NCBI GenBank assembly: GCA_963749915.1
Contig: CAVVOP010000032.1
Coordinates: forward strand, 96,001-160,000
Source of the DNA: an uncultured cyanobacterium
GTDB taxonomy: Bacteria > Cyanobacteriota > Cyanobacteriia > Cyanobacteriales > Cyanobacteriaceae
Length of the DNA stretch: 64,000 bases
Reading direction: 5' to 3'
Part shown: one piece after another, positions 2,362 to 19,971 of the stretch
Layout of the letters: each line of letters opens with the position of its first letter
How positions within the stretch are numbered: the stretch's first letter is position 1
The notes under the pieces: model-generated
Told to the model about the DNA's origin: nothing
Seen by the model: only the letters and a program-made list of their open reading frames with translations
Database searches by the model: none
Position numbers and translations under genes: made by a program

Positions 2362-5300
2362 ATGGTAAAGATTGGAGGTATTAACCTCGGCAAACTCACG
2401 GAATTTTCGATTTTCGTCTCTGACGGTAGCTCCAAAGCCAAAATTCAATCTTCTTCGCCGGGTTACTCTGGTGATTGGGCGGTCAACGGACTCGTCGCTG
2501 AAGAGGACACTTCTGGCAACTTGGCCTATGGCGGAAACATCTACACGAATGCGACTGGGCCTTCAGCATTCGGGAAATGGCAAGACATCCTGGATAATAA
2601 TGTTGGCCAAGCCTTTGGTGTAACGGGTCAGACAGACCTGATCAATGGCCTCAAATCAACCCTCAATCAGGCGTTCCTGGATATCAATGCGCTACCCGTA
2701 TCTGCTGGATTCAACGGAGTATCAGCTAATTCCCTTAATGGGCTAAATACTACCAATAAGATATCCGAAACTTTTGTTGTTAACATAACCAACTTCAGTG
2801 TCAGTAGTCCGATCAGGATTACGGGCGATCCTGACGATGTCTTCATCTTTCGTTGGGATACGGATGCCAATTTCAGCAATGGTTACGATGGTGAGGTTAA
2901 ATTTTCAGGGGGCAACGGTTTCGTCCCCTTAGGTGGTTTATCTCCCGCTAATTTCATCCACGTTGCCGGGGATATTAACACCTCCGGTGGTGGCAAGCCC
3001 CCCACCGACTTCAATTTTCCCCAGGGTCCCCGCCTCGGCAATGGGCAGGGTGATCTGGTAAGCGGTTCTGAAGATTGGCCTGACAGCCAGGGTGGAGGTT
3101 TCTTTACTGGCTACTGGCTGACCACCGGCAAACCGGACAACGCTCCCGATGCCAACCACTCGGTTTACTGGGGAAAGACTTCAAGCCAGAGCAACGGTCG
3201 AATCGTCGGCGGCTGGTATACCATCACCAATGATTTCACCCTAACATCCGGCACCGCAGCAGTGTATGTTGGTCCCGTCGATTATGGTGATTTACCTCAA
3301 CCCAAGTACAAAACCACTCGGAGCAATAATGGACCAGGCCACGTCATCACCGATACCTTATTCCTGGGCACTAACTTTGACATGGATATTGACCCAGAAG
3401 GGGACGGACAGCCCAATGCTACCGCTACGGGGGATAATCTCGCCAATCTCGACGACGAGACGGCCGTAACCATTCCCACCCTGCTTGCCGGACAGAATGC
3501 AACCTTCAACGTTGAAGTCACGAACAAGACTGGGAAAAATGCCACCCTCTATGGGTTCATTGATTGGAACATGGATGGGGATTTCGCTGACACGGGCGAG
3601 ACGGCAACGAAGATCGTGGCCAATAACACGATGGGGAACGTCACCCTCCCATTCAATGTGCCTGCGAATGCCGTTCTGGGCATGGACTTAGGTGCTCGCT
3701 TCCGCCTCAGTACGGCTACTGGACTGGGACCCACCGATCCGCAAGGAGCCAACGGACCCATCCCCGCACCAGATGGGGAAGTGGAAGACTACCTCGTAAA
3801 GGTACAACAACCTACCGCCAAACTGGGCGACTTCGTCTGGGAAGACCTCAACGCCAACGGCCTGCAAGAAGCGGATGAACCCGGCATCAACGGCGTCACG
3901 GTCAAACTGCTCGACGCCAGCGGTGCAACCCTCCAGACCACCACAACTGGTGCCGGCACCAATGACCCCAACACCCCGGGTGACGAAAGCAACGGCTATT
4001 ACGAATTCAGCGGTCTGACTCCTGGTGTGGGCTACACCGTGATGTTCGTCAATCCAGACGACGAGGGCCCTGATGCCTACATGTTCAGCGAGCCCTTCGC
4101 TCCCACTGGTATGACACCGGCTCAGAACCCAACGACTGACAGCAACGTCATCGATACGATCAATGGCACCACCACTCCGGTGTTCCTCATTCCGGACGAG
4201 TTCGACCGCACCATCGATGCCGGTCTGTTCCGCAAGGGCTCGATCGGGGATTTCGTCTGGAACGACCTCAACGCCAACGGTATCCAGAATGCAGGGGAAC
4301 CCGGCATCAACGGCGTCACGGTCAAACTGCTCGACGCCACCACCGGTGCAACCCTCCAGACCACCACAACTGGTGCCGGCACCAATGACCCCAACACCCC
4401 GGGCGACGAACGCAACGGCTATTACGAATTCACCGGCCTGACTCCCGGTGTGAACTACAAGGTGATGTTCACCCAGCCCGCCGGCTTCAATTCAGTCAGT
4501 CCCTTCCAGGCGGGGAATAATCCCGCCATCGATTCCGATGCCAATCCAGATGATGGCCTGATGTCGGATGTAGTGGTGCTCGAATCGGGGGAATTCAACC
4601 GCACCATCGATGCGGGCTTCTACAACACTGCCAAACTAGGGGATTTCATCTGGGAAGACCTCAACGCCAACGGCCTGCAAGAAGCGGGTGAACCCGGCAT
4701 TAACGGCGTCACGGTCAAACTGCTCGACGCCACCACCGGTGCAATCCTCCAGACCACCACAACTGGTGCCGGCACCAATGACCCCACCACCCCGGGTGAC
4801 GAACGCAACGGCTATTACGAATTCACCGGTCTGACTCCCGGTGTGGGCTACACCGTGATGTTCGTCAATCCAGACGACGAGGGCCCTGATGCCTACATGT
4901 TCAGCAAGCCCTTCGCTCCCACTGGTATGACACCGGCTCAGAACCCAACGACTGACAGCAACGTCATCGATCCGATCAATGGTACCACCACTCCGGTGTT
5001 CCTCACTTCGGGCGAGTTCGACCGCACCATCGATGCCGGTCTGTTCCGCAAGGGCTCGATCGGGGATTTCGTCTGGAACGACCTCAACGCCAACGGCCTG
5101 CAAGAAGCGGATGAACCCGGCATTAACGGCGTCACAGTCAAACTGCTCGACGCCACCACCGGTGCAACCCTCCAGACCACCACAACTGGTGCCGGCACCA
5201 ATGACCCCACCACCCCGGGTGACGAACGCAACGGCTATTACCAATTCACCGGCCTGACTCCCGGTGTGAACTACAAGGTGATGTTCACCCAGCCCGCCGG

Positions 5301-7221
5301 CTTCAATTCAGTCAGTCCCTTCCAGGCGGGGAATAATCCCGCCATCGATTCCGATGCCAATCCAGATGATGGCCTGATGTCGGATGTAGTGGTGCTCGAA
5401 TCGGGGGAATTCAACCGCACCATCGATGCGGGCTTCTACAACACTGCCAAACTGGGGGATTTCGTCTGGCTGGATAAGAACGCCAACGGTATCCAGAATG
5501 CAGGGGAACCCGGCATCAACGGCGTCACGGTCAAACTGCTCGACGCCACCACCGGTGCAATCCTCCAGACCACCACAACTGGTGCCGGCACCAATGACCC
5601 CACCACCCCGGGTGACGAACGCAACGGCTATTACGAATTCACCGGTCTGACTCCCGGTGTGGAGTACAAGGTGATGTTCGTCAATCCAGACGATGAGGGC
5701 CCTGATGCCTATATGTTCAGTCCCCAGTATGCACCCACTGGTGTCGCACCGGGTCAAAACCCAACCATCGACAGCAACGCCGATCCCGAAAATGGCATGA
5801 CAGACATCGTCACCCTTACTTCTGGGGAATTCAACCGCACCATCGATGCCGGTCTGTTCCGCAAGGGTTCGATCCACGCCTTCGGCTTCCTCGATGAGAA
5901 CGGCGACGGCAAATTGAATCACAACGAAGGTGCTTTCCCCGATGATCCGGGCAAGACCCTGGTCCTCCAAGGAGACGTGAACGGCGACGGCATCTCCGAG
6001 ACAGTCACCCAAAAGACTGTGGATGGCATGGCCTCATTCGAAGGGCTGACCCCCGGAACCTATACCCTGAGGGAGTTCCCCATTCCCAACGGCTACACAC
6101 TGACGACGACACCCAACAGACGCACCTTCACCGTGCTCAGCGGCCAGGAACTCGTCTACGCTAATGGAGCGGCGAACCTGCCACCAGGAGATCAGCGCAC
6201 GGAAATCAATATAGGCCGCCGACTACAGTGGGGTAACGCCCCAGAAACAGGGGACCTGGAGATTATCAAGACGGCTAATCGCTACCAAATATCTCCTGGA
6301 GAAAACATAACCTATACTATCACAGTTAGTAACACTGGACAACTCACCGCCACCAATGCTCAGGTGGTAGATATGTTCTCCACCGCCCTGACCAACGTAA
6401 CCTGGACTAGCGAAGCTTTTGACGGAGCCACAAATAATGAGGCCAATGGAAGTGGCGATATTGACGACTTGGTGACCCTGCCATCGGGCAGCCGCATCAC
6501 CTATACAGTCGTGGGTACGTTAGCTCCAGTCAACGAGCTATCTGAATTTAGCCTGTTCGACACAGGGGTTAACGGTACCAACCTAGGTCAGAGCATTACT
6601 ACTCTTAACGGCGTTACAGCTGACGCTTTCTACTACAATGGCCCTGCTGATTATCAGGCCACCAACAATGTCACAGACACTGTCCTCTGGCAACGGAATC
6701 AAAGAAACGATCGCGGACTTGGGGTTATTTCTGATGGCGAGACCTTACCTACAAATAACGGCGATGTCAACGAGATCAGCAACCAGCTAAACAAAGACGT
6801 TCTCCGACTGGCTAAAGCCGATGAAGACCAATGGCGTGCCCTTTGGGTCTCTTCTCTCGATCAAAACGGTACTGGAGGCGCTGAAAAAGGAAGGGTTTAC
6901 TGGTCTAACGATCCTACTCCCAACCTAGATACACTAATAAATGGCGGACAATCATTTGCCTTTGAGTATGGCGACTTCGGCACTAGCGTAGAAGGCAATA
7001 TCCTTACCCTAACCCAGGCATCGGGATTTGATTTGGACGCTGAGTATGTATTCTTCACTGCTGGATTGGGCACAACCGATACTGGTACTAATAACGATTA
7101 CCTTGTCTGGCAAGCAACAACAACATTGACTAACACGGCAATGGTAACACCACCCCCTGGTTTCACCGACAATAACCCTAACAATAACATGAGTACAGTT
7201 ATGACTGAGATTGTCTTCTAA
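2362..7221 (+). CDS. Large GC-rich surface/adhesin protein: DUF3494-like N-terminus, GEVED domain, five SdrD B-like domains, DUF11-like domain
   Basis: DYGDLP...DGEVEDY (GEVED); five LGDFVWxDxNANG...IDAG units; GDLEIIKT...ITYTITVSNTG...DNNPNNN (DUF11-like). Confidence 0.85.
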   Translation: MVKIGGINLGKLTEFSIFVSDGSSKAKIQSSSPGYSGDWAVNGLVAEEDTSGNLAYGGNIYTNATGPSAFGKWQDILDNNVGQAFGVTGQTDLINGLKSTLNQAFLDINALPVSAGFNGVSANSLNGLNTTNKISETFVVNITNFSVSSPIRITGDPDDVFIFRWDTDANFSNGYDGEVKFSGGNGFVPLGGLSPANFIHVAGDINTSGGGKPPTDFNFPQGPRLGNGQGDLVSGSEDWPDSQGGGFFTGYWLTTGKPDNAPDANHSVYWGKTSSQSNGRIVGGWYTITNDFTLTSGTAAVYVGPVDYGDLPQPKYKTTRSNNGPGHVITDTLFLGTNFDMDIDPEGDGQPNATATGDNLANLDDETAVTIPTLLAGQNATFNVEVTNKTGKNATLYGFIDWNMDGDFADTGETATKIVANNTMGNVTLPFNVPANAVLGMDLGARFRLSTATGLGPTDPQGANGPIPAPDGEVEDYLVKVQQPTAKLGDFVWEDLNANGLQEADEPGINGVTVKLLDASGATLQTTTTGAGTNDPNTPGDESNGYYEFSGLTPGVGYTVMFVNPDDEGPDAYMFSEPFAPTGMTPAQNPTTDSNVIDTINGTTTPVFLIPDEFDRTIDAGLFRKGSIGDFVWNDLNANGIQNAGEPGINGVTVKLLDATTGATLQTTTTGAGTNDPNTPGDERNGYYEFTGLTPGVNYKVMFTQPAGFNSVSPFQAGNNPAIDSDANPDDGLMSDVVVLESGEFNRTIDAGFYNTAKLGDFIWEDLNANGLQEAGEPGINGVTVKLLDATTGAILQTTTTGAGTNDPTTPGDERNGYYEFTGLTPGVGYTVMFVNPDDEGPDAYMFSKPFAPTGMTPAQNPTTDSNVIDPINGTTTPVFLTSGEFDRTIDAGLFRKGSIGDFVWNDLNANGLQEADEPGINGVTVKLLDATTGATLQTTTTGAGTNDPTTPGDERNGYYQFTGLTPGVNYKVMFTQPAGFNSVSPFQAGNNPAIDSDANPDDGLMSDVVVLESGEFNRTIDAGFYNTAKLGDFVWLDKNANGIQNAGEPGINGVTVKLLDATTGAILQTTTTGAGTNDPTTPGDERNGYYEFTGLTPGVEYKVMFVNPDDEGPDAYMFSPQYAPTGVAPGQNPTIDSNADPENGMTDIVTLTSGEFNRTIDAGLFRKGSIHAFGFLDENGDGKLNHNEGAFPDDPGKTLVLQGDVNGDGISETVTQKTVDGMASFEGLTPGTYTLREFPIPNGYTLTTTPNRRTFTVLSGQELVYANGAANLPPGDQRTEINIGRRLQWGNAPETGDLEIIKTANRYQISPGENITYTITVSNTGQLTATNAQVVDMFSTALTNVTWTSEAFDGATNNEANGSGDIDDLVTLPSGSRITYTVVGTLAPVNELSEFSLFDTGVNGTNLGQSITTLNGVTADAFYYNGPADYQATNNVTDTVLWQRNQRNDRGLGVISDGETLPTNNGDVNEISNQLNKDVLRLAKADEDQWRALWVSSLDQNGTGGAEKGRVYWSNDPTPNLDTLINGGQSFAFEYGDFGTSVEGNILTLTQASGFDLDAEYVFFTAGLGTTDTGTNNDYLVWQATTTLTNTAMVTPPPGFTDNNPNNNMSTVMTEIVF
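3817..5874 (+). repeat. Intragenic tandem duplication with 813-816 bp period (A-B-A-B-A' SdrD-B units)
   Basis: GCCAAACT unit starts at 3817, 4630 and 5446; DNA of corresponding units is near-identical. Confidence 0.95.
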
Positions 7222-11623: not shown

Positions 11624-12421
11624 TTAAATTATTTCCTCCTCTTCTTGCCAATCTTCTTCACTCCAATCAATGGCTTGAGGTTCATGTTCTCCATTATTAT
11701 TAGATGAATTATCTTCTTCTAACCATTCTTGCCAATCGTCACTCACTTCTAAACTAGGAGAATCATCTTCGCCGTCAGAATTTATCACCACTTCTTCTTT
11801 TGTGACTATTTCTTCTTTTTCTGGCATTTCATCCATAAAATCATCCCAGTTTTCTTCCTTATCTTCAATGTCTTCTTTATTTTCATCGGTGAAGATTTCT
11901 TCTTCTGACACCATTTCTAAATCTAATGATGTATCCTCAAAATTTTCTGATTTTGGACTTTGATTCTCGGATTCCGGTGTTTCGTTTTCTATGTCATCAA
12001 TCCAATTTTCCTCATCATCATCTCGTATCGTTTCTTCATATTCTTGATTTTCCTTATAGTTTAATCTATTTTGCGGGGAGGAATTTAATTCAAAATCAGT
12101 GAAATCATCCTCAGAATTTCCGGCAATTATTTGTAAAACTTTAACCAAAGTTTCTCTATTTTTCTCCCAAATTTCATACACATTTGCTACTTGTTTTTGA
12201 TGAAATTTTAGGACATTATTATTAGAAAGTAAACTTTGATCACTTATTTTAGTGGTTAATCCCTTTAATAAGTTAATTTCAGTCTCGATATTAGATATTT
12301 TATCTTTCCCTTTATAAGTACTAGTTAACGTAAGTTTTAAACTGTTACTTAAGGCAATAAAAAAAATCTGTTGTAACTTTTTTTTCTCTAATAATTCTTT
12401 AATATCTTCATTATTAACCAT
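11624..12421 (-). CDS. Hypothetical protein with a long acidic, Trp-punctuated C-terminal tail
   Basis: 265-aa ORF; N-terminal ~100 aa resemble the upstream 104-aa protein; tail is D/E-rich. Confidence 0.8.
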   Translation of the reverse strand: MVNNEDIKELLEKKKLQQIFFIALSNSLKLTLTSTYKGKDKISNIETEINLLKGLTTKISDQSLLSNNNVLKFHQKQVANVYEIWEKNRETLVKVLQIIAGNSEDDFTDFELNSSPQNRLNYKENQEYEETIRDDDEENWIDDIENETPESENQSPKSENFEDTSLDLEMVSEEEIFTDENKEDIEDKEENWDDFMDEMPEKEEIVTKEEVVINSDGEDDSPSLEVSDDWQEWLEEDNSSNNNGEHEPQAIDWSEEDWQEEEEII

Positions 12422-12484
12422 TATTTTTACTCCATAATTAAATATATATCTTAGACGTTTTAGAATTTTAAATAATTAAAATAT

Positions 12485-12799
12485 TTAACTAAATTCGTCT
12501 AAATTTTGTTGTAAAATATTAAATATTTTTTGTAAGCTTTGAGCATTTTGTAAAATTTTCTCGTGAGCTTTTTCTACTTCTTGAAAGTGTAAATTTTCAA
12601 TGTGAGGATCCCCTAGCTCGTGATCGATTTCATTCTGTAATAAGTCTATAAAAGTACGAGAAGACGTAGAAGGGGAGTTATCTTGATCACTAGTAGTGGT
12701 GACTATTTCTATTTTCATGGCCTCCGACATTGCGATCGCCATAGCTTCTTCGATTTCTCCGTTTCTAATTTTCGCTTTTACTTCTTCAATTTTGCTCAT
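12485..12799 (-). CDS. Hypothetical protein
   Basis: 104-aa ORF co-oriented in the psbP-maf run. Confidence 0.8.
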   Translation of the reverse strand: MSKIEEVKAKIRNGEIEEAMAIAMSEAMKIEIVTTTSDQDNSPSTSSRTFIDLLQNEIDHELGDPHIENLHFQEVEKAHEKILQNAQSLQKIFNILQQNLDEFS

Positions 12800-12859
12800 G
12801 ATTTAGATTACCTTAAATTTCTTCTTTCAATTAGCTTAACTCAAATTGTCTGTAACAAC

Positions 12860-13444
12860 TTACCAAAAATCTGTTACCCGAAAGCTTAAATTTGCTAACA
12901 TTATGCGTAATAACGGCAGGCTTAAGCCAATTACATTACTATGACAGCCGATAATTTTATCAATAAAAACTCCTCCTTTACCCTCTAAAGCAAAACTACC
13001 AGCGCATTTCAATGGTTCTTCTGTGGCTACATAAGCTTTAATAACAGAATCATCAATATCAGCAAAATATACCTCTGTGATGCCACACTGAATCGTTTTT
13101 TCTTGGGTGTCAGTGTTAATTAAAGCATGGCCTGTATATAATTTGCCTATTTTTCCCCTCATTTTTTGCCAACGTGCGATGGCAATTTCGGCATTGTCAG
13201 GCTTACCATAAATTTCCCCCTCCATTTGTAACACAGAATCGCAACCTAAAACTAAGGCAGAAGGGAAAAAACTAGCGACGGTTTTAGCTTTTTTCCATGC
13301 CAAAGTATTGACTAAATCTGTGACGTCGGTTAAATTAAGTTGAGATTCGTCGTAATTGCTACTATGAACAATGGGTTCAATGCCAATCATTTTCAGCAGT
13401 TTTAAACGGGCGGGAGAAGCAGAAGCAAGAACAAATTTAGGCAT
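12860..13444 (-). CDS. maf: Maf family nucleoside triphosphate pyrophosphatase
   Basis: [25 protein letters not shown]. Confidence 0.95.
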
Positions 13445-14465: not shown

Positions 14466-17400
14466 ATGAACAATAAATACTCTCTCATTATTAGTAATGG
14501 TTTAAGAAAGAAAATAAACTTACTTAATTCTTCAAATCAAGAGATAATTTTAACAAATTTAGAAAGCATTATTCATCATCATTTATTAACTTCAGAAGTC
14601 AAAAAAAGAGAACAAGGCAAGGTTATTTATCGCCTTAACTATAACTATAAATTAGAGATATTTATTACCAATATTCCTGTAAATAAAGAAAATAGAGTTA
14701 AAATTTTAAATATTTTTGATAAAAATAAGCTTAAAAGAGTCATTGTATTTAAGGAAGGGATTTCAGCAAAAGTAGTTGACATTGATATTAATATTAATCG
14801 GGAAGATAACTCTATTAGTAGCCAAATTATTAATAACTTTAAAAGCAAAGAAAATTTAAAAATACAAAGCGAAGACTTTGAAAGTAACTTTAATGATTTC
14901 TTTTATTATACTTTACAAGATTTAAAAATATCCCATATCAACGACCATAAATGTCTCATCTCCTTAGAAGAAATTAATAATATTAAACAACCTTTACCGT
15001 TACTTTTACAGGGATTTAACAACACAGGAAAAACAACGGTATCTTTGATAAAGGCTATTCAAACAAGTAAAAGAAATCAGGAAGAAAAAATTCTTTATCT
15101 TAGCGATAGTTTAAGCAATAAACATCACACAAAATATCTGTTTCAAGAATTATCGAAAGGAGAAAAAGTTGATAACTTAATTATAGATGAATACATCAGT
15201 TTTTGTTGTAAATTTGCTCAAGATAACCATATTTTACCAAGCAATAGTTTTCTTAGAAGCCAAGAAATTAACTATGACAAATTTAAGCACAAGTTTTTAA
15301 ATAATCAAGAAATAGAAGAGCTAGAATCATGGTATCTTTGGCAAGAAATCTATTATTTAATTAAAGGAAATAGTATTTGTCCCAAGAATGATTATAACTT
15401 AATTTCGGTAGAAGATTATCAACAACAAACTCAAAAATACAGTTTTTTACCTCAAGATGTTAACCCGAAGCAAATTTATCAATTAGCTGTTCAATATCAA
15501 CAATGGTTAACTAAGAATAACTATTGGGATGAGATCGATTTAAGCAATTATATTTTACAACATCTTTCTGAACCTTTTATCGGTATTTATTCTCAAGTTT
15601 ACTGCGATAACGTTCATAAATTAAATGATATAGCTTTAAAATTAATTATAACTCTGACGAAAAAAGATCCCGATAAAAATTTAGCTCCTAACTTTTGTTT
15701 TACCTATGATAGTGAAAAATCTATTTATGACTCAGAAACTTTTATCAATAAAATTGAAAAATTTGTTTCCCCCCAAGAAAATGAGCTGACGATTAACCAG
15801 GGAAAATTAACCTTTAACTTGATTGCCAATGAAGACTTAATCAATTTTAGTCAAGGATTATTAAATTTAGAGTCAACGAAAAAATCTCCCAGCAAGGATA
15901 TTCTCAAAAATAACCGTATTCTCCAAGAAAATAGTAATTGTTTATGGATTATTGCCCCAGAATCGAAACTATTGAGTTTGGGAAAAAACTTTGCCTTGGA
16001 TAAATGTATCGTAGTTACTAACAATCAAGAAAAAGAAAAATTACTTACTATTTTTAAAACCAGTCAAGAGGTTTCTTGCAGTCGGATTCTCACTATTAAT
16101 GAAATAGACGGTTTAAAATTCGACGAAATTATCCTTTGGAACTTTTTTAGCTACTTTAACAAAATTAAATACAATAGTTTGACAACAGATTTATTGAAAA
16201 AATATTTATACCTTTGTTTGGGGTGTGTGAAAGAGAAAATTTACTGTTATGAAAGTAATTTTAACCTTGGGGACAACTATCCTAATTTAGAAGGTTACTT
16301 GACTAAAGGGAATACTGAAAATTTAGAAGACTTTTTTACCATTTCCCTTGAGGATAATGTTGAAAATATTGCTCAAGTTTATCATCATCAAGGTGCATGG
16401 AAACAGGCTTATGAATGTTATTGGCAGATAAAAAAGTATAAAAATGCAAAACTGATTCAACCTTATATCGCCGAAAATGAAGGTAACTGGGGAAAAGCGG
16501 GAGATTTGTGGAATATTTTAGGAAAATGGCAACAAGCCGTTAACTGTTGGCAGGAAATTGATGAAAATTTATGGTTAAAAAAATGGGAAAACTTAACACC
16601 TTTACAGTGGCAGGAAAAAGGCAGATATTTTCAAAAAAATCATCATTATAATTTGGCTATTATTTGTTTTGAAAAAGCCAATGATAGTGAAAATTATTTA
16701 CGGTGTTTAAAACTTAGTCAACAATGGGAAAAAACAGGAGATGAATATAAAAAACAAGGTAATGAAGAAGAAGCGAAAAAATGTTATTTAACAGCAGAAA
16801 AAGTTTATCGTCAAAGGAGTGATTTATCCCGCTGTGCTTTGATGTGGGAAAAACAAGAAGCATGGGAAAAAACTGCCTTAATTAGAGAGGAGGAAAATCA
16901 ATGGGAAAAAGCCGCCTTACAGTGGGAAAAAATTGAAAAATGGGAAAAAGCCGCTATTTGTTACCAAAAAAATTCTCAGTGGGAAAAAGCCGAAATTTGT
17001 TGGCGAAAATTAAAGGATTGGCACAAAATAGCCTTATGTTGTGAAGCACAAGAAAAATGGCAAGAATCAGCAAAGATTTGGGAAAAATTACAACAATGGC
17101 AAAAAGCGGCGGAAAACTACCTAAAAATTCCGCAACTTCGCCAAGCCGCGGAAAGTTATCAACGGGGAATGTATTGGCAAGAAGCAGAAAACTGTTGGCG
17201 CAAACTTAACCATCAACCGAATATCGCTTTGTGTTGCGAGTCTCAACATAAATGGCAGTCTGCCGCACAAATTTGGCAACAATTAGAAAATTGGCAAAAG
17301 GCAGGTTACGCATGGGAAATGGTAAAAGACCCCAAAAAAGCAGGTTTATGTTATGAAAAAGCCCAACTTTGGTCAAACGCTGAGACTTGTTGGCTAAAAT

Positions 17401-19763
17401 TAAGAAATTGGGGAAAACTTGCCCTTATTTATCAGAAACAAGGAGAATGGCAAAAAGCCGCCGAGGCATGGTTACAAATTGGTGAAAAAAAATCCGCCGC
17501 TAAATGTTACTCTCAGGGAAAGTTATGGAATTTAGCCGAAAATTTATGGCGGGAATTGGAAAATTGGCAAGAAGTCGCTTTTTGTTGTTATCACCAGAAG
17601 GATTATCAATCTGCCGCTAATCTCTGGCAAAAATTACAACGGTTTTCCGAAGCCGGAAAGGCATGGCAACAATTAGAAGAATATTCTCAAGCGGCTTGGT
17701 GTTATGAAAAAGTCAAGGCATGGAAAGAAGCAGAATTTTGTTGGCGTCAACTCGAGGACTGGGAAAAAGTAGCCACAGTTTGTCAAAAACAACATCATTG
17801 GCAAAAGTCAGCGGATATTTGGTTACAGTTAGGGGAGTTATCTCAGGCTTCCCTTGATTATGAGTTGGCTAAAAATTGGCCAAAAGCTGAAGACTGTTGG
17901 CGACAACTGCAACAATGGGTTAACGTAGCGGTGATGTGTGAAAGACAGGAAAAATGGTTAGAAGCGGCACAAACATGGCAAAAAGTTAAACCAGAGGAAA
18001 AAGCCGCCTTTTGTTATGAAAAAGTAGAGGCATGGCAATCAGCAGAAGAATGTTGGCGTAAACTAGAAAATTGGCAAAAAGTCGCTATTCTTTGCGAAAA
18101 ACAAGAAAAATGGCAAGATTCCGCTACTATCTGGCAACAATTAGCAAAATGGAAAAAAGCCGCTACCTCGTGGGAAAAAATTAATCACCTAGACTCGGCG
18201 GGTATTTGTTATGAAAATGCAGAAAATTGGCAAAAGGCCGAAGAGTGTTGGCTTAAACTTGAAAATTGGCCGAAATTAGCAGAAATTTACGAAAAACAAC
18301 ATAAGTGGCAATCTGCCTCCGAGTTATGGGAAAAACAACAGGGGTGGGAAAAAGCCGCTGCTTCTTGGTTAAAAATAGAGGAAATCGAAAAAGCCGGTAA
18401 TTGTTACGAAAAAGGAGAAAATTGGCCAAAAGCAGAAGAATGTTGGCGTCAACTGCAAAATTGGCAAAAAGTCGCCATAGTTTGTGAAAAACAACAGGCA
18501 TGGGAAAAAGCCGCCACTTCTTGGTTAAACATAGAGGAAACCGAAAAAGCTGGTAATTGTTACGAAAAAGAAGAAAATTGGCCAAAAGCAGAAGAATGTT
18601 GGCTTAAACTTGAAAATTGGCCAAAAGTGGCCATCACTTGTGAAAAACAACAGAAGTGGGAAAAAGCCGCTACTTCTTGGCTAAAAATAGGGGAAATCGA
18701 AAAAGCAGGTAATTGTTATGAAAAAGGAGAAAATTGGCCAAAAGTCGAAGAATGTTGGCGTCAACTGCAAAATTGGCAAAAAGTCGCCATCACTTGTGAA
18801 AAACAACGGGCATGGGAAAAGGCCGCCGAGGCATGGTTGGCAGTGGATAACATGGAAAATGCCGCTAGATGTTATGCAGTTATGGAAAACTGGGGAAAAG
18901 CAGAATCTTGTTGGTTAGTTATCGGTAATTGGGAAAAAGCCGCTGTGATGGCTGAAAAACAATCCAAGTGGGAAACCGCCGCCGATATTTGGCAAACACA
19001 ACAACAGTGGGGAAAAGCTGCCTCTGCATGGTTACAAATTTCTCAATTAGCCAAGGCCGCTGTTTGCTATCAACAAGGAGAATTTTGGGATTTAGCACAA
19101 AACCTCTGGCGTCAACTCGAAGACTGGGAAAAAGTCGCCTTCACCTGTGAAAAACAAAACCAGTGGGATCAAGCCGCTTTTGCCTACATTCTTGCCAATA
19201 ACTATAAATTAGGGGCAGAAATTTATGAAAAGATTCAACAATACTCTGAAGCCGAAAACTGTTGGCGACAACTAGAGAATTGGCAACAAGTCGCTCTGGT
19301 TTGTGAAAAACAATCTAAATGGCAATGTGCAGGAGAAGCATGGGAACTGATTTCTGAGTGGGAAAAAGCCGCTTTAGCCTATCAAAATGCCCAATTATGG
19401 CAGAAAAACGCTGATTGTTGGCAAAATTTATCTCGGTACGATATGGTAGCGATGGCCTATCAACAACAAAAACAATGGCAAAAAGCAGCAGAAACATGGT
19501 TACAAAGCGATGTTGAAGACAAAATTATCAAAGCCGCCCTTTGTTATGAACAAGGACGATACTGGCAATTAGCGGAAGAATGTTGGCGTCAAATAACTCA
19601 ATGGGAAAAAGTCGCCTATACTTGTGAACAACAGGGAGAAGGGAAATGGGATTTAGCTGTAGAAGCGTGGAACTTGGCAGGAAATAAACTCAAAGCCGCC
19701 AATTTACTCAGAAAAATGGGCAAATGGAAACAGGCAGCCTTAATGTTAGCTAATCGAATTTAA
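14466..19763 (+). CDS. 1765-aa protein: RelE-like N-terminus, degenerate UvrD/SF1 helicase-like region, long Trp/Cys-rich TPR-like repeat array
   Basis: GFNNTGKTT Walker A; VYCDNVHKL at the Walker B position; DGLKFDEIILWNFF and LYLCLGCVKEK at C-terminal SF1 motif positions; 13-aa WxKAxxCW/Y repeats over ~1100 aa. Confidence 0.8.
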   Translation: MNNKYSLIISNGLRKKINLLNSSNQEIILTNLESIIHHHLLTSEVKKREQGKVIYRLNYNYKLEIFITNIPVNKENRVKILNIFDKNKLKRVIVFKEGISAKVVDIDININREDNSISSQIINNFKSKENLKIQSEDFESNFNDFFYYTLQDLKISHINDHKCLISLEEINNIKQPLPLLLQGFNNTGKTTVSLIKAIQTSKRNQEEKILYLSDSLSNKHHTKYLFQELSKGEKVDNLIIDEYISFCCKFAQDNHILPSNSFLRSQEINYDKFKHKFLNNQEIEELESWYLWQEIYYLIKGNSICPKNDYNLISVEDYQQQTQKYSFLPQDVNPKQIYQLAVQYQQWLTKNNYWDEIDLSNYILQHLSEPFIGIYSQVYCDNVHKLNDIALKLIITLTKKDPDKNLAPNFCFTYDSEKSIYDSETFINKIEKFVSPQENELTINQGKLTFNLIANEDLINFSQGLLNLESTKKSPSKDILKNNRILQENSNCLWIIAPESKLLSLGKNFALDKCIVVTNNQEKEKLLTIFKTSQEVSCSRILTINEIDGLKFDEIILWNFFSYFNKIKYNSLTTDLLKKYLYLCLGCVKEKIYCYESNFNLGDNYPNLEGYLTKGNTENLEDFFTISLEDNVENIAQVYHHQGAWKQAYECYWQIKKYKNAKLIQPYIAENEGNWGKAGDLWNILGKWQQAVNCWQEIDENLWLKKWENLTPLQWQEKGRYFQKNHHYNLAIICFEKANDSENYLRCLKLSQQWEKTGDEYKKQGNEEEAKKCYLTAEKVYRQRSDLSRCALMWEKQEAWEKTALIREEENQWEKAALQWEKIEKWEKAAICYQKNSQWEKAEICWRKLKDWHKIALCCEAQEKWQESAKIWEKLQQWQKAAENYLKIPQLRQAAESYQRGMYWQEAENCWRKLNHQPNIALCCESQHKWQSAAQIWQQLENWQKAGYAWEMVKDPKKAGLCYEKAQLWSNAETCWLKLRNWGKLALIYQKQGEWQKAAEAWLQIGEKKSAAKCYSQGKLWNLAENLWRELENWQEVAFCCYHQKDYQSAANLWQKLQRFSEAGKAWQQLEEYSQAAWCYEKVKAWKEAEFCWRQLEDWEKVATVCQKQHHWQKSADIWLQLGELSQASLDYELAKNWPKAEDCWRQLQQWVNVAVMCERQEKWLEAAQTWQKVKPEEKAAFCYEKVEAWQSAEECWRKLENWQKVAILCEKQEKWQDSATIWQQLAKWKKAATSWEKINHLDSAGICYENAENWQKAEECWLKLENWPKLAEIYEKQHKWQSASELWEKQQGWEKAAASWLKIEEIEKAGNCYEKGENWPKAEECWRQLQNWQKVAIVCEKQQAWEKAATSWLNIEETEKAGNCYEKEENWPKAEECWLKLENWPKVAITCEKQQKWEKAATSWLKIGEIEKAGNCYEKGENWPKVEECWRQLQNWQKVAITCEKQRAWEKAAEAWLAVDNMENAARCYAVMENWGKAESCWLVIGNWEKAAVMAEKQSKWETAADIWQTQQQWGKAASAWLQISQLAKAAVCYQQGEFWDLAQNLWRQLEDWEKVAFTCEKQNQWDQAAFAYILANNYKLGAEIYEKIQQYSEAENCWRQLENWQQVALVCEKQSKWQCAGEAWELISEWEKAALAYQNAQLWQKNADCWQNLSRYDMVAMAYQQQKQWQKAAETWLQSDVEDKIIKAALCYEQGRYWQLAEECWRQITQWEKVAYTCEQQGEGKWDLAVEAWNLAGNKLKAANLLRKMGKWKQAALMLANRI
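18346..18830 (+). repeat. Recent 156-bp (52-aa) intragenic tandem repeat, three copies plus a partial one
   Basis: GGGAAAA(A/G)GCCGC recurs at about 18346, 18502, 18658 and 18814 with near-identical intervening DNA. Confidence 0.9.
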
Positions 19764-19857
19764 TCTCAGAAATGAGTATGGGTTTACCTTGACTTTCGTC
19801 AGGGATTCTTGGCAACAGGATTCTTTTTTTTGTTATAATCTGAAATGCTTGTTATCT

Positions 19858-19942
19858 GGAGAGGTGGCAGAGTGGTCGATCGCGCTCGACTTGAAATCGA
19901 GTGACTAGGAATAGTCCGTGGGTTCAAATCCCACCCTCTCCG
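19858..19942 (+). tRNA. trnS: tRNA-Ser(TGA)
   Basis: GGAGAGG/CCTCTCC acceptor stem, anticodon arm CTCGA-CTTGAAA-TCGAG, long variable arm, GGTTCAAATCC T arm; CCA not encoded. Confidence 0.97.
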
Positions 19943-19971
19943 TACTCTAATGAAGACTCAAGAAAATCTTT

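Follow-up and report, generated by a model that had tools for sequence, protein, structure and literature searches.

The window analysed here is a 64,000-nucleotide stretch of DNA from an uncultured cyanobacterium of the family Cyanobacteriaceae (contig CAVVOP010000032.1, positions 96,001 to 160,000). On its forward strand, at 14466..19763, a single open reading frame (ORF) encodes a protein of 1,765 amino acids (aa) that combines, in order, a RelE-like head, a superfamily 1 (SF1) helicase fold and a long array of helical repeats. The gene belongs to a paralogous lineage, which we call lineage A, in which the catalytic residues of the wider family have been replaced; we refer to such copies as dead. 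It ranks ninth in length among the 1,635 ORFs of at least 300 aa in the genome, and only one of these exceeds it in Trp content. An earlier reading made from the letters alone (hereafter the sequence-only reading) had remarked that the gene stands by itself, and it is indeed solitary: psbP lies upstream and is divergent, and a DUF4335 gene lies downstream and is convergent. A tRNA-Ser gene (TGA anticodon; 19857..19943, + strand), which that reading did not mention, follows 93 bases past the stop codon and is given for context only.

The 353-base gap upstream of the gene contains no ORF of at least 80 aa that could be an antitoxin candidate (shorter ORFs were not listed), and a promoter scan yielded 1 site where 3.2 were expected. 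G+C content at third codon positions (GC3) places the gene at the 37th percentile of the 1,635 long ORFs, and a flanking tRNA-Ser is found at none of 10 lineage-A orthologue loci; on the ordinary GC3 and the missing tRNA we reject recent transfer or tRNA integration. Scans with the full-length protein returned repeat families only from Pfam, with no ankyrin match, no match from PADLOC, nothing real from NCBIfam and nothing from a sequence search of the PDB. A word-indexed search gave one match, and an Atlas search gave leads scoring below 0.9. The viral fold library contributed ordinary helicases only, and eight viral loci are distant helicases with 22-38% identity over parts.

Domain architecture and residue losses

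The centre of the protein (aa 161-620; 14946..16325, + strand) is an SF1 (UvrD/Rep-like) pseudo-helicase, as judged from a fold model and structure matches. AlphaFold2, run on aa 1-700 with a 32-row alignment, returned a model with a predicted local distance difference test score (pLDDT) of 86 and a predicted template modelling score (pTM) of 0.87. With this model Foldseek retrieved PcrA at E 4.4e-11, and structure comparison gave Z scores of 20.1 for Rep (root-mean-square deviation 4.9 over 405 residues), 18.6 for PcrA and 17.2 for HelD. In the predicted model the region has an SF1A fold with two RecA-like lobes, which bears out the helicase assignment of the sequence-only reading.

The motifs quoted in that reading are all present: Walker A at aa 183-190 (15012..15035, + strand), CDNV at 380, DGLKF at 548 and LYLCLGCV at 581. 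We examined conservation in an alignment (A1) of 11 lineage-A rows, 15 rows from a second dead lineage (lineage B) and 6 intact rows, giving 26 dead rows and 32 in total. Gly183, Gly188, Lys189 and Thr/Ser190 of Walker A are kept in all 32 rows, as is Asp381 of Walker B (15606..15611, + strand). Four further residues have roles known from SF1 biochemistry: the Walker B Glu, the motif III Gln, the motif IV Arg and the motif VI Arg. All four are kept in 6/6 intact A1 rows and in 10/10 added intact rows. Among the 26 dead rows the Glu is retained in one (from lineage B), the Gln in two, and each Arg in none. The studied protein carries Asn382, Lys418, Ile453 and Cys587 at these sites; Asn382 replaces the catalytic Glu, and Cys587, within motif VI (aa 581-588; 16206..16229, + strand), replaces the arginine finger.

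The first 91 residues (14466..14738, + strand; isoelectric point (pI) 10.1) form a RelE/YoeB-like domain, followed by a linker region (aa 92-160; 14739..14945, + strand) that is partly structured in the model. The assignment of the head runs through the intact relatives. A profile of 12 lineage-A heads matches one of 12 intact heads (hhalign 89.5%, E 1.9e-6), and the intact-head profile in turn reaches YoeB structures (E 6e-4), the two conserved Arg falling in register. A wider 104-row profile gives a weaker link to the lineage-A heads (72.9%, E 3.1e-5); against it the head of the studied protein reaches E 0.0026 and the best lineage-A head 1.3e-6 (33 rows). Set against RelE structures, the lineage-A head profile alone found no match, and a structure search with the whole model was filled by helicases. 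The head region of the model follows a strand-helix-helix-helix-three-strand order, and two intact relatives bear Joint Genome Institute (JGI) names as RelE or Txe/YoeB fusions. By this two-step, transitive link the head is probably a homologue of the RelE/ParE fold, the resemblance that the sequence-only reading had pointed out.

That reading had also cast the head as a working RelE effector, which is unsupported because the conserved Arg, Arg and His are replaced throughout lineage A. In the intact family R59, R65 and H94 are invariant in 28/28 rows; a catalytic role for them is suggested by the alignment with YoeB and by general background. In 12/12 lineage-A heads the two Arg have become Asn and Glu, and Lys or Arg stands at position 86 instead of His (Asn58, Glu64 and Lys86 in the studied protein). 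Lineage-B heads keep one Arg in 1/15 and nothing else at these sites. On sequence grounds, both enzyme parts of the protein are very probably dead.

The residues after aa 630 (the last 1,135) contain 9.1% Trp and 4.2% Cys. An irregular helical cap (aa 625-786; 16338..16823, + strand), common to the intact relatives and to the eukaryotic protein TRANK1 (discussed below), leads from the helicase into an array of 13-aa Trp/Cys helical repeats (aa 787-1753; 16824..19724, + strand), predicted to form 10-residue helices and 3-residue turns. Self-identity peaks at lags 13, 26, 39, 52 and 65 (0.21-0.31) against 0.044 at lag 34, and the 13-aa register is unbroken from aa 787 to 1683. A 13-aa profile derived from the protein itself detects 80 units within aa 645-1753 (mean 16.9 and maximum 25 in 20 shuffles). 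The Trp/Cys richness described in the sequence-only reading stands, and its count of about 85 units was slightly high. Its identification of the repeats as tetratricopeptide repeats (TPRs) fails: the units are 13-aa single helices rather than 34-aa TPRs, and a canonical TPR is ruled out by the 13/26/52/65 period, the low lag-34 self-identity and the single 10-residue helices. Pfam does place Clathrin (52.8 bits) above its cut-off on the protein, and TPR_2 above its own on 23-aa stretches.

A fold model of the last 595 aa contains 10-residue helices and 3-residue turns (pLDDT 91); its pTM is 0.43, and the overall rod shape is not fixed by it. The top Foldseek matches to this model are chains of intraflagellar transport complex A (IFT-A), at TM-scores below 0.3 and a best Z of 12.8, which is the generic range for helical repeats; likeness to IFT-A and clathrin-type repeats stays at that generic level, and kinship with them is not supported. 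Orthologue arrays align nearly gap-free, with exact loss of 52 or 104 aa in 2/9, where three near-identical 52-aa super-repeats stand in a row (aa 1294-1449; 18345..18812, + strand; 136-145/156 bases alike). A strict length ruler is ruled out by these deletions of 52 and 104 aa and by one copy of 2,173 aa.

Intact relatives and paralogous lineages

The A1 profile retrieves 979 representatives at E <=1e-30 among 1.84 billion, a count that does not imply family membership of all. The helicase is spanned in 138 of the best 150 of these 979, and DExQD is kept in 136/138, with a lineage-B protein and P0006, a metagenomic protein considered below, as the remaining two. Long forms among the matches listed come from Acidobacteria, Lentisphaerae, Spirochaetes, Bacteroidota and a Heimdallarchaeote record. 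The last, a long-family member of 1,664 aa with housekeeping neighbours (L088:5833-10824, record titled Heimdallarchaeota), bears on the origin of TRANK1. Within the cyanobacteria the parent family is patchy, occurring in 39/301 genomes and in 32/294 outside the family studied here. A curated NCBIfam model for the family was not found, in that 0/14 relatives reached a full-length family cut-off. Among individual relatives, a 3,050-aa protein of Effrenium voratum (P0063) carries two copies of the same helicase type.

Neighbours were scanned at 15 loci (13 long-form, 2 short-form; 109 ORFs of at least 100 aa). A clear defence island surrounds one of the 13 long-form loci, a short RelE-helicase gene adjoins another, and the rest have generic or Uma2-like matches. 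The island (L085:1498-13501) holds an Argonaute-SIR2 pair, a type I methylase piece and a viperin-like gene, and its helicase-family member is a 993-aa protein without a clear RelE match. The long family appears to be mostly solitary, and a defence role for it may be supposed. Both short-form loci adjoin DruE-like helicases. There (L139:1-10962 and L152:1-5673), RelE-UvrD genes of about 700 aa directly follow the DruE-like helicases in an ARMADA-like arrangement, and L139 runs on into an Azaca ZacABC operon.

We searched 20 genomes of the cyanobacterial family and found matches in 18; the two without a match are 84% complete or in 530 contigs. Lineage A (1,660-2,173 aa) is complete in 11 genomes, cut by a contig end in one, truncated in one and not found in seven. 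For lineage B (about 1,310 aa) we found 14 genomes with a complete copy, one whose copy runs off its contig, one with a broken copy and one with only unassigned contig-end pieces; three yielded none. Group C (1,108-1,221 aa), with all motifs intact and the same Trp/Cys repeats, occurs in 3/20. Lineage B was not found in the genome of the studied gene, and B is present without an open A in five genomes, which rules out an obligate A-B pair. The named records of one paralogue belong to Cyanobacterium aponinum and Geminocystis sp., and this locates the family. Three further observations concern these groups. The genome of the studied gene retains a 5'-truncated, frameshifted group-C remnant (G000:C5:372420-373725, locus L058; 57% to L033). 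The 2,173-aa lineage-A copy (L036:3590-10111) has a long insertion in the helicase region and a longer array and is still open. A second, more distant cyanobacterial subfamily of about 1,360-1,600 aa (L053, L055, L064, L065, L070, L071, L074-L076, L078) has intact helicase motifs and a longer, different N-terminus.

An open dead copy, of A or B, is present in 17/20 family genomes, and all three genomes with an intact paralogue hold at least one. This co-occurrence would suit a pseudo-enzyme partner that binds the intact paralogue, or some other host helicase, and regulates it, much as RecC and the N-terminus of AddB act on their active partners. AddB resembles the studied core in its intact P-loop and lost downstream motifs, and weak matches to Pfam ADDB_N occur in 10/32 A1 rows (best E 0.00045). 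However, of the 17 genomes that carry an open dead copy, 14 yielded no intact paralogue, yet selection continues in them, and we regard a partner of this kind as decidedly improbable.

The dead copies have been inherited genus by genus. Tree support is 100/100 for A, 98/94 for B and 98/98 for A+B; each genus forms one group in both lineages, and the branching order is the same for the three shared genera. P0006 branches beside A+B in a half-way residue state, having lost the Glu, the Gln, the motif VI Arg, one head Arg and the His and kept the motif IV Arg and the second head Arg.

Pairwise ratios of nonsynonymous to synonymous substitution rates (dN/dS) were computed by the Nei-Gojobori method for 11 lineage-A and 9 lineage-B pairs. 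In lineage A they are 0.15-0.31 for the helicase, 0.13-0.18 for aa 791-1765 (the repeats) and 0.13-0.44 for the head. In lineage B they are 0.07-0.29 for the helicase, 0.05-0.17 for the repeats and 0.13-0.77 for the head, the fastest domain, with one poorly aligned linker at 1.45. Neighbouring genes, taken for comparison, give 0.08-0.13 (psbP, maf and a 104-aa gene) and 0.21-0.28 (a 265-aa gene), with two pairs each. Resolved by position in the 13-aa unit, dN/dS is 0.02-0.36 (three pairs), and a diversifying face was not seen. The purifying dN/dS across lineage-A and lineage-B pairs indicates that the gene is not decaying, and decay is contradicted by values well below 1 in every lineage-A domain together with 11 complete lineage-A ORFs. 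The sequence-only reading had left it to orthologues to say whether this copy was simply eroding; the loss of hydrolysis residues proves to be fixed under purifying selection instead. That the protein is a slow or unconventional ATPase, or that its gene is decaying, could be argued from the intact Walker A and Asp381, from the one lineage-B copy that keeps its Glu and from the existence of broken copies. With four separate catalytic positions gone in the studied copy, and complete lineage-A ORFs of 1,660-2,173 aa under constraint, this explanation is very improbable.

The same comparisons bear on the head. Its replaced residues are themselves fixed in lineage A, which has 15 invariant positions within aa 1-95, and the domain is basic; for these reasons it seems to keep a selected surface. 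One could envision a single-gene sensor-effector with a non-cutting toxin, in which a trigger releases the dead head and the head blocks the ribosome or another target by binding. Yet the lineage-B head changes fastest and has no common residue at the replaced sites, and Glu64 reverses the charge of an invariant Arg, so we judge such a toxin improbable. The one-gene effector, switch and sensor proposed in the sequence-only reading fits the ancestor and the intact relatives better than the studied copy, whose head residues are also lost.

Kinship with TRANK1 and comparison with known systems

The resemblance to TRANK1 (TPR and ankyrin repeat-containing protein 1, LBA1), a protein of animals with fungal and plant relatives, was raised in the sequence-only reading and is upheld by helicase matches, by a RelE-like domain before the TRANK1 helicase and by a quick tree. 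The query was the helicase region of the intact relative P0013, only proteins of 1,681-4,800 aa were searched, and the best 120 of 308 matches were examined. These are mostly TRANK1-named proteins from birds, mammals, reptiles, corals, fungi and plants, at E 4.5e-29 to 2.3e-21 and about 30% identity. A RelE profile built from bacteria only has its best match 120-320 aa before Walker A in 110/120 of the eukaryotic proteins (P0174-P0293); 55 matches have E <1e-3, and the best reversed-sequence control has E 3.4. This domain carries no Pfam label. Twenty-two of the eukaryotic RelE-like segments, compared with the bacterial profile, give hhalign 96.8% and E 2.3e-10. The segment after motif VI matches in 116/117 eukaryotic proteins, with reversed controls reaching E 6.7e-4. 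In the quick tree, which included no canonical UvrD/PcrA outgroup and not ArmD itself, a branch with support 100 separates the long bacterial forms, together with the dead lineages and 11 TRANK1-like proteins, from the short ArmD-like fusions.

These comparisons point to common descent of a RelE-like, SF1 helicase and helical-segment core in TRANK1 and the long bacterial family, and the studied protein likely descends from a little-studied bacterial counterpart of animal TRANK1. The three parts stand in the same order in both proteins. TRANK1 differs in its extra N-terminal TPR/ankyrin parts, its length of about 2,000-4,000 aa and its retained helicase motifs, which are intact in 12 eukaryotic TRANK1-like proteins inspected. 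The studied protein, by contrast, starts directly with its RelE-like domain; it is catalytically dead, and its repeats form a regular 13-aa Trp/Cys array. TRANK1 is tied to bipolar disorder, its function has been called unknown (10.1101/192815), and its expression rises on influenza infection in the chicken gut (PMC8517014). We found no account in the open-access literature of the dead lineages, of a RelE-like domain in TRANK1, or of the long solitary family and its relation to TRANK1; subscription journals, database annotations and bioRxiv supplements were outside the scope of that search. A RelE-like domain in TRANK1, with small one-gene counterparts in bacteria, would make the idea of a regulated RNase-helicase testable in bacteria.

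RelE-UvrD fusions as such are already in print, in ArmD of ARMADA type II (a RelE-like RNase joined to a GajB-like UvrD helicase) and in a similar fusion beside type I-K Tiamat. Anantharaman and Aravind reportedly noted RelE/ParE-helicase fusions in Genome Biology in 2003. Like ArmD, the studied protein joins a RelE-like head to a UvrD-like helicase. ArmD belongs to a four-gene operon, whereas the studied gene is solitary and dead, and the other ARMADA type II genes (BrxHII-like helicase, PglX-like methylase and YprA-like helicase) do not accompany it. The ArmD look-alikes of about 700 aa lack a long repeat tail, adjoin DruE-like helicases and separate from the long family in the tree.

With the SF1A helicases UvrD, Rep, PcrA and HelD the studied protein has its fold in common, and it has lost their Walker B Glu, motif III Gln and both Arg. 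Unlike these enzymes and unlike RecC and AddB, it has no active partner gene, and its core stands between a RelE-like head and a helical array of 1,100 aa. Unlike RelE, YoeB and HigB toxins, the head is fused, its Arg/Arg/His set is replaced and no antitoxin ORF of at least 80 aa adjoins it. Avs and other STAND (signal transduction ATPases with numerous domains) NLR-like receptors also place effector, NTPase and repeats in one chain, as the studied protein does; their NTPase is of the STAND class, whereas the studied one is SF1, with its 405-residue match, and has no PADLOC match. By these comparisons the studied protein is not an active SF1 helicase, a RelE toxin, or an ARMADA, Avs or canonical TPR member; it would operate in the manner of pseudo-enzyme scaffolds such as RecC and AddB, on the basis of a RelE-helicase fusion. 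A term search of a 2025 article by Gerdes (PMC11980606) found no mention of helicase, UvrD or TPR.

Possible function and history

From the layout, the residue losses, the kept P-loop and Mg-binding Asp, the purifying selection, the genus-wise inheritance and the descent from an intact family, which we regard as established, we read the protein as a domesticated, nucleotide-binding, non-enzymatic scaffold, a tentative reading that falls a little short of an even chance. On the narrower question of a host scaffold rather than a defence protein, the balance is about even. The pseudo-helicase would bind ATP or ADP without turnover, so that the bound nucleotide might hold the two RecA-like lobes as a fixed clamp or serve as a slow switch. 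The dead head, which is basic, could act with the helicase cleft to hold a conserved host target; given the RelE ancestry, our first guess for it is RNA or the ribosome. The long repeat rod could then recruit or space a conserved host partner.

The sequence-only reading likened the layout to that of immune sensors and thought a defence or signalling scaffold possible. In an anti-phage component, the repeats might sense a conserved phage structure or serve as a decoy that draws phage inhibitors away from the intact system, with the nucleotide-bound core signalling to an effector elsewhere. Patchiness of the parent family and turnover of 52-aa blocks in the array would fit such a role, and ArmD offers a precedent. 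ArmD is needed for ARMADA defence, and a Walker A change abolished protection where a Walker B change only reduced it, so that binding mattered more than hydrolysis (10.1101/2025.09.15.676423). Because the Walker B change only reduced protection, a helicase that merely binds nucleotide could still serve defence. However, the dead copies are inherited genus by genus and are near-fixed, no repeat position is under relaxed or positive selection, and no effector is linked. No defence genes were seen among the neighbours of 12 lineage-A loci, where the only neighbour common to different genera is one generic ABC ATPase pair. Genus-wise inheritance, the missing diversifying position and the ordinary neighbours lead us to disfavour an immune sensor on balance, and we consider an anti-phage part, the main rival of the scaffold, unlikely.

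Several observations weigh against the scaffold. The array still gains and loses 52-aa blocks, and one orthologue has reached 2,173 aa; ligand-binding immune repeats also gain and lose blocks. The solitary location is no argument against defence, because the intact relatives are mostly solitary too. The P-loop could have been retained for structural reasons and not for binding. Each lineage is individually dispensable, A not having been found in 7/20 genomes and being truncated in one, and B not having been found in three and being broken in one. In the same pairs, psbP and maf have slightly lower dN/dS than the gene. Finally, when motif columns are removed from the tree, support for A+B falls to 79 in the Shimodaira-Hasegawa-like approximate likelihood-ratio test (SH-aLRT), while A+C is rejected (approximately unbiased (AU) test, p 0.02; three distant rows left out). 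Because of this drop, a single loss of catalysis followed by duplication into A and B is favoured by the sequences and not proven.

The ancestor of the scaffold may have been an intact one-gene conflict protein, in which the repeats sensed a trigger and the motor fed single-stranded nucleic acid to the protein's own RNase. It would have duplicated, one copy would have lost catalysis, and that copy would have split into A and B before the genera of the family diverged; the dead copies would then have been kept while the intact copy was being lost. A broader and more doubtful proposal is that TRANK1 and the widespread solitary bacterial family represent one ancient system, composed of an antitoxin-free RelE-like RNase, an SF1 motor and a helical-repeat gate. 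In one cyanobacterial family it would have been tamed into two doubly dead paralogues, in which a locked, nucleotide-bound helicase and a 13-aa rod took on a new housekeeping job. If this is true, an immune protein was turned into a structural or regulatory scaffold in bacteria. The gene is a candidate for the domestication of a conflict protein to host work. The loss of two active sites, with the nucleotide pocket kept in all aligned copies across several genera, provides a clean natural experiment on how a RelE-helicase fusion behaves once catalysis is gone.

Two other parts of the window merit mention. A 1,619-aa, repeat-rich ORF resembling surface proteins (2362-7221) has a G+C content of 55-58% against about 37% around it and was possibly acquired. 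At 11624-13444, maf is followed by two unnamed genes, of 104 aa and of 265 aa (the latter very acidic), and this group is conserved with psbP in the two closest relatives.

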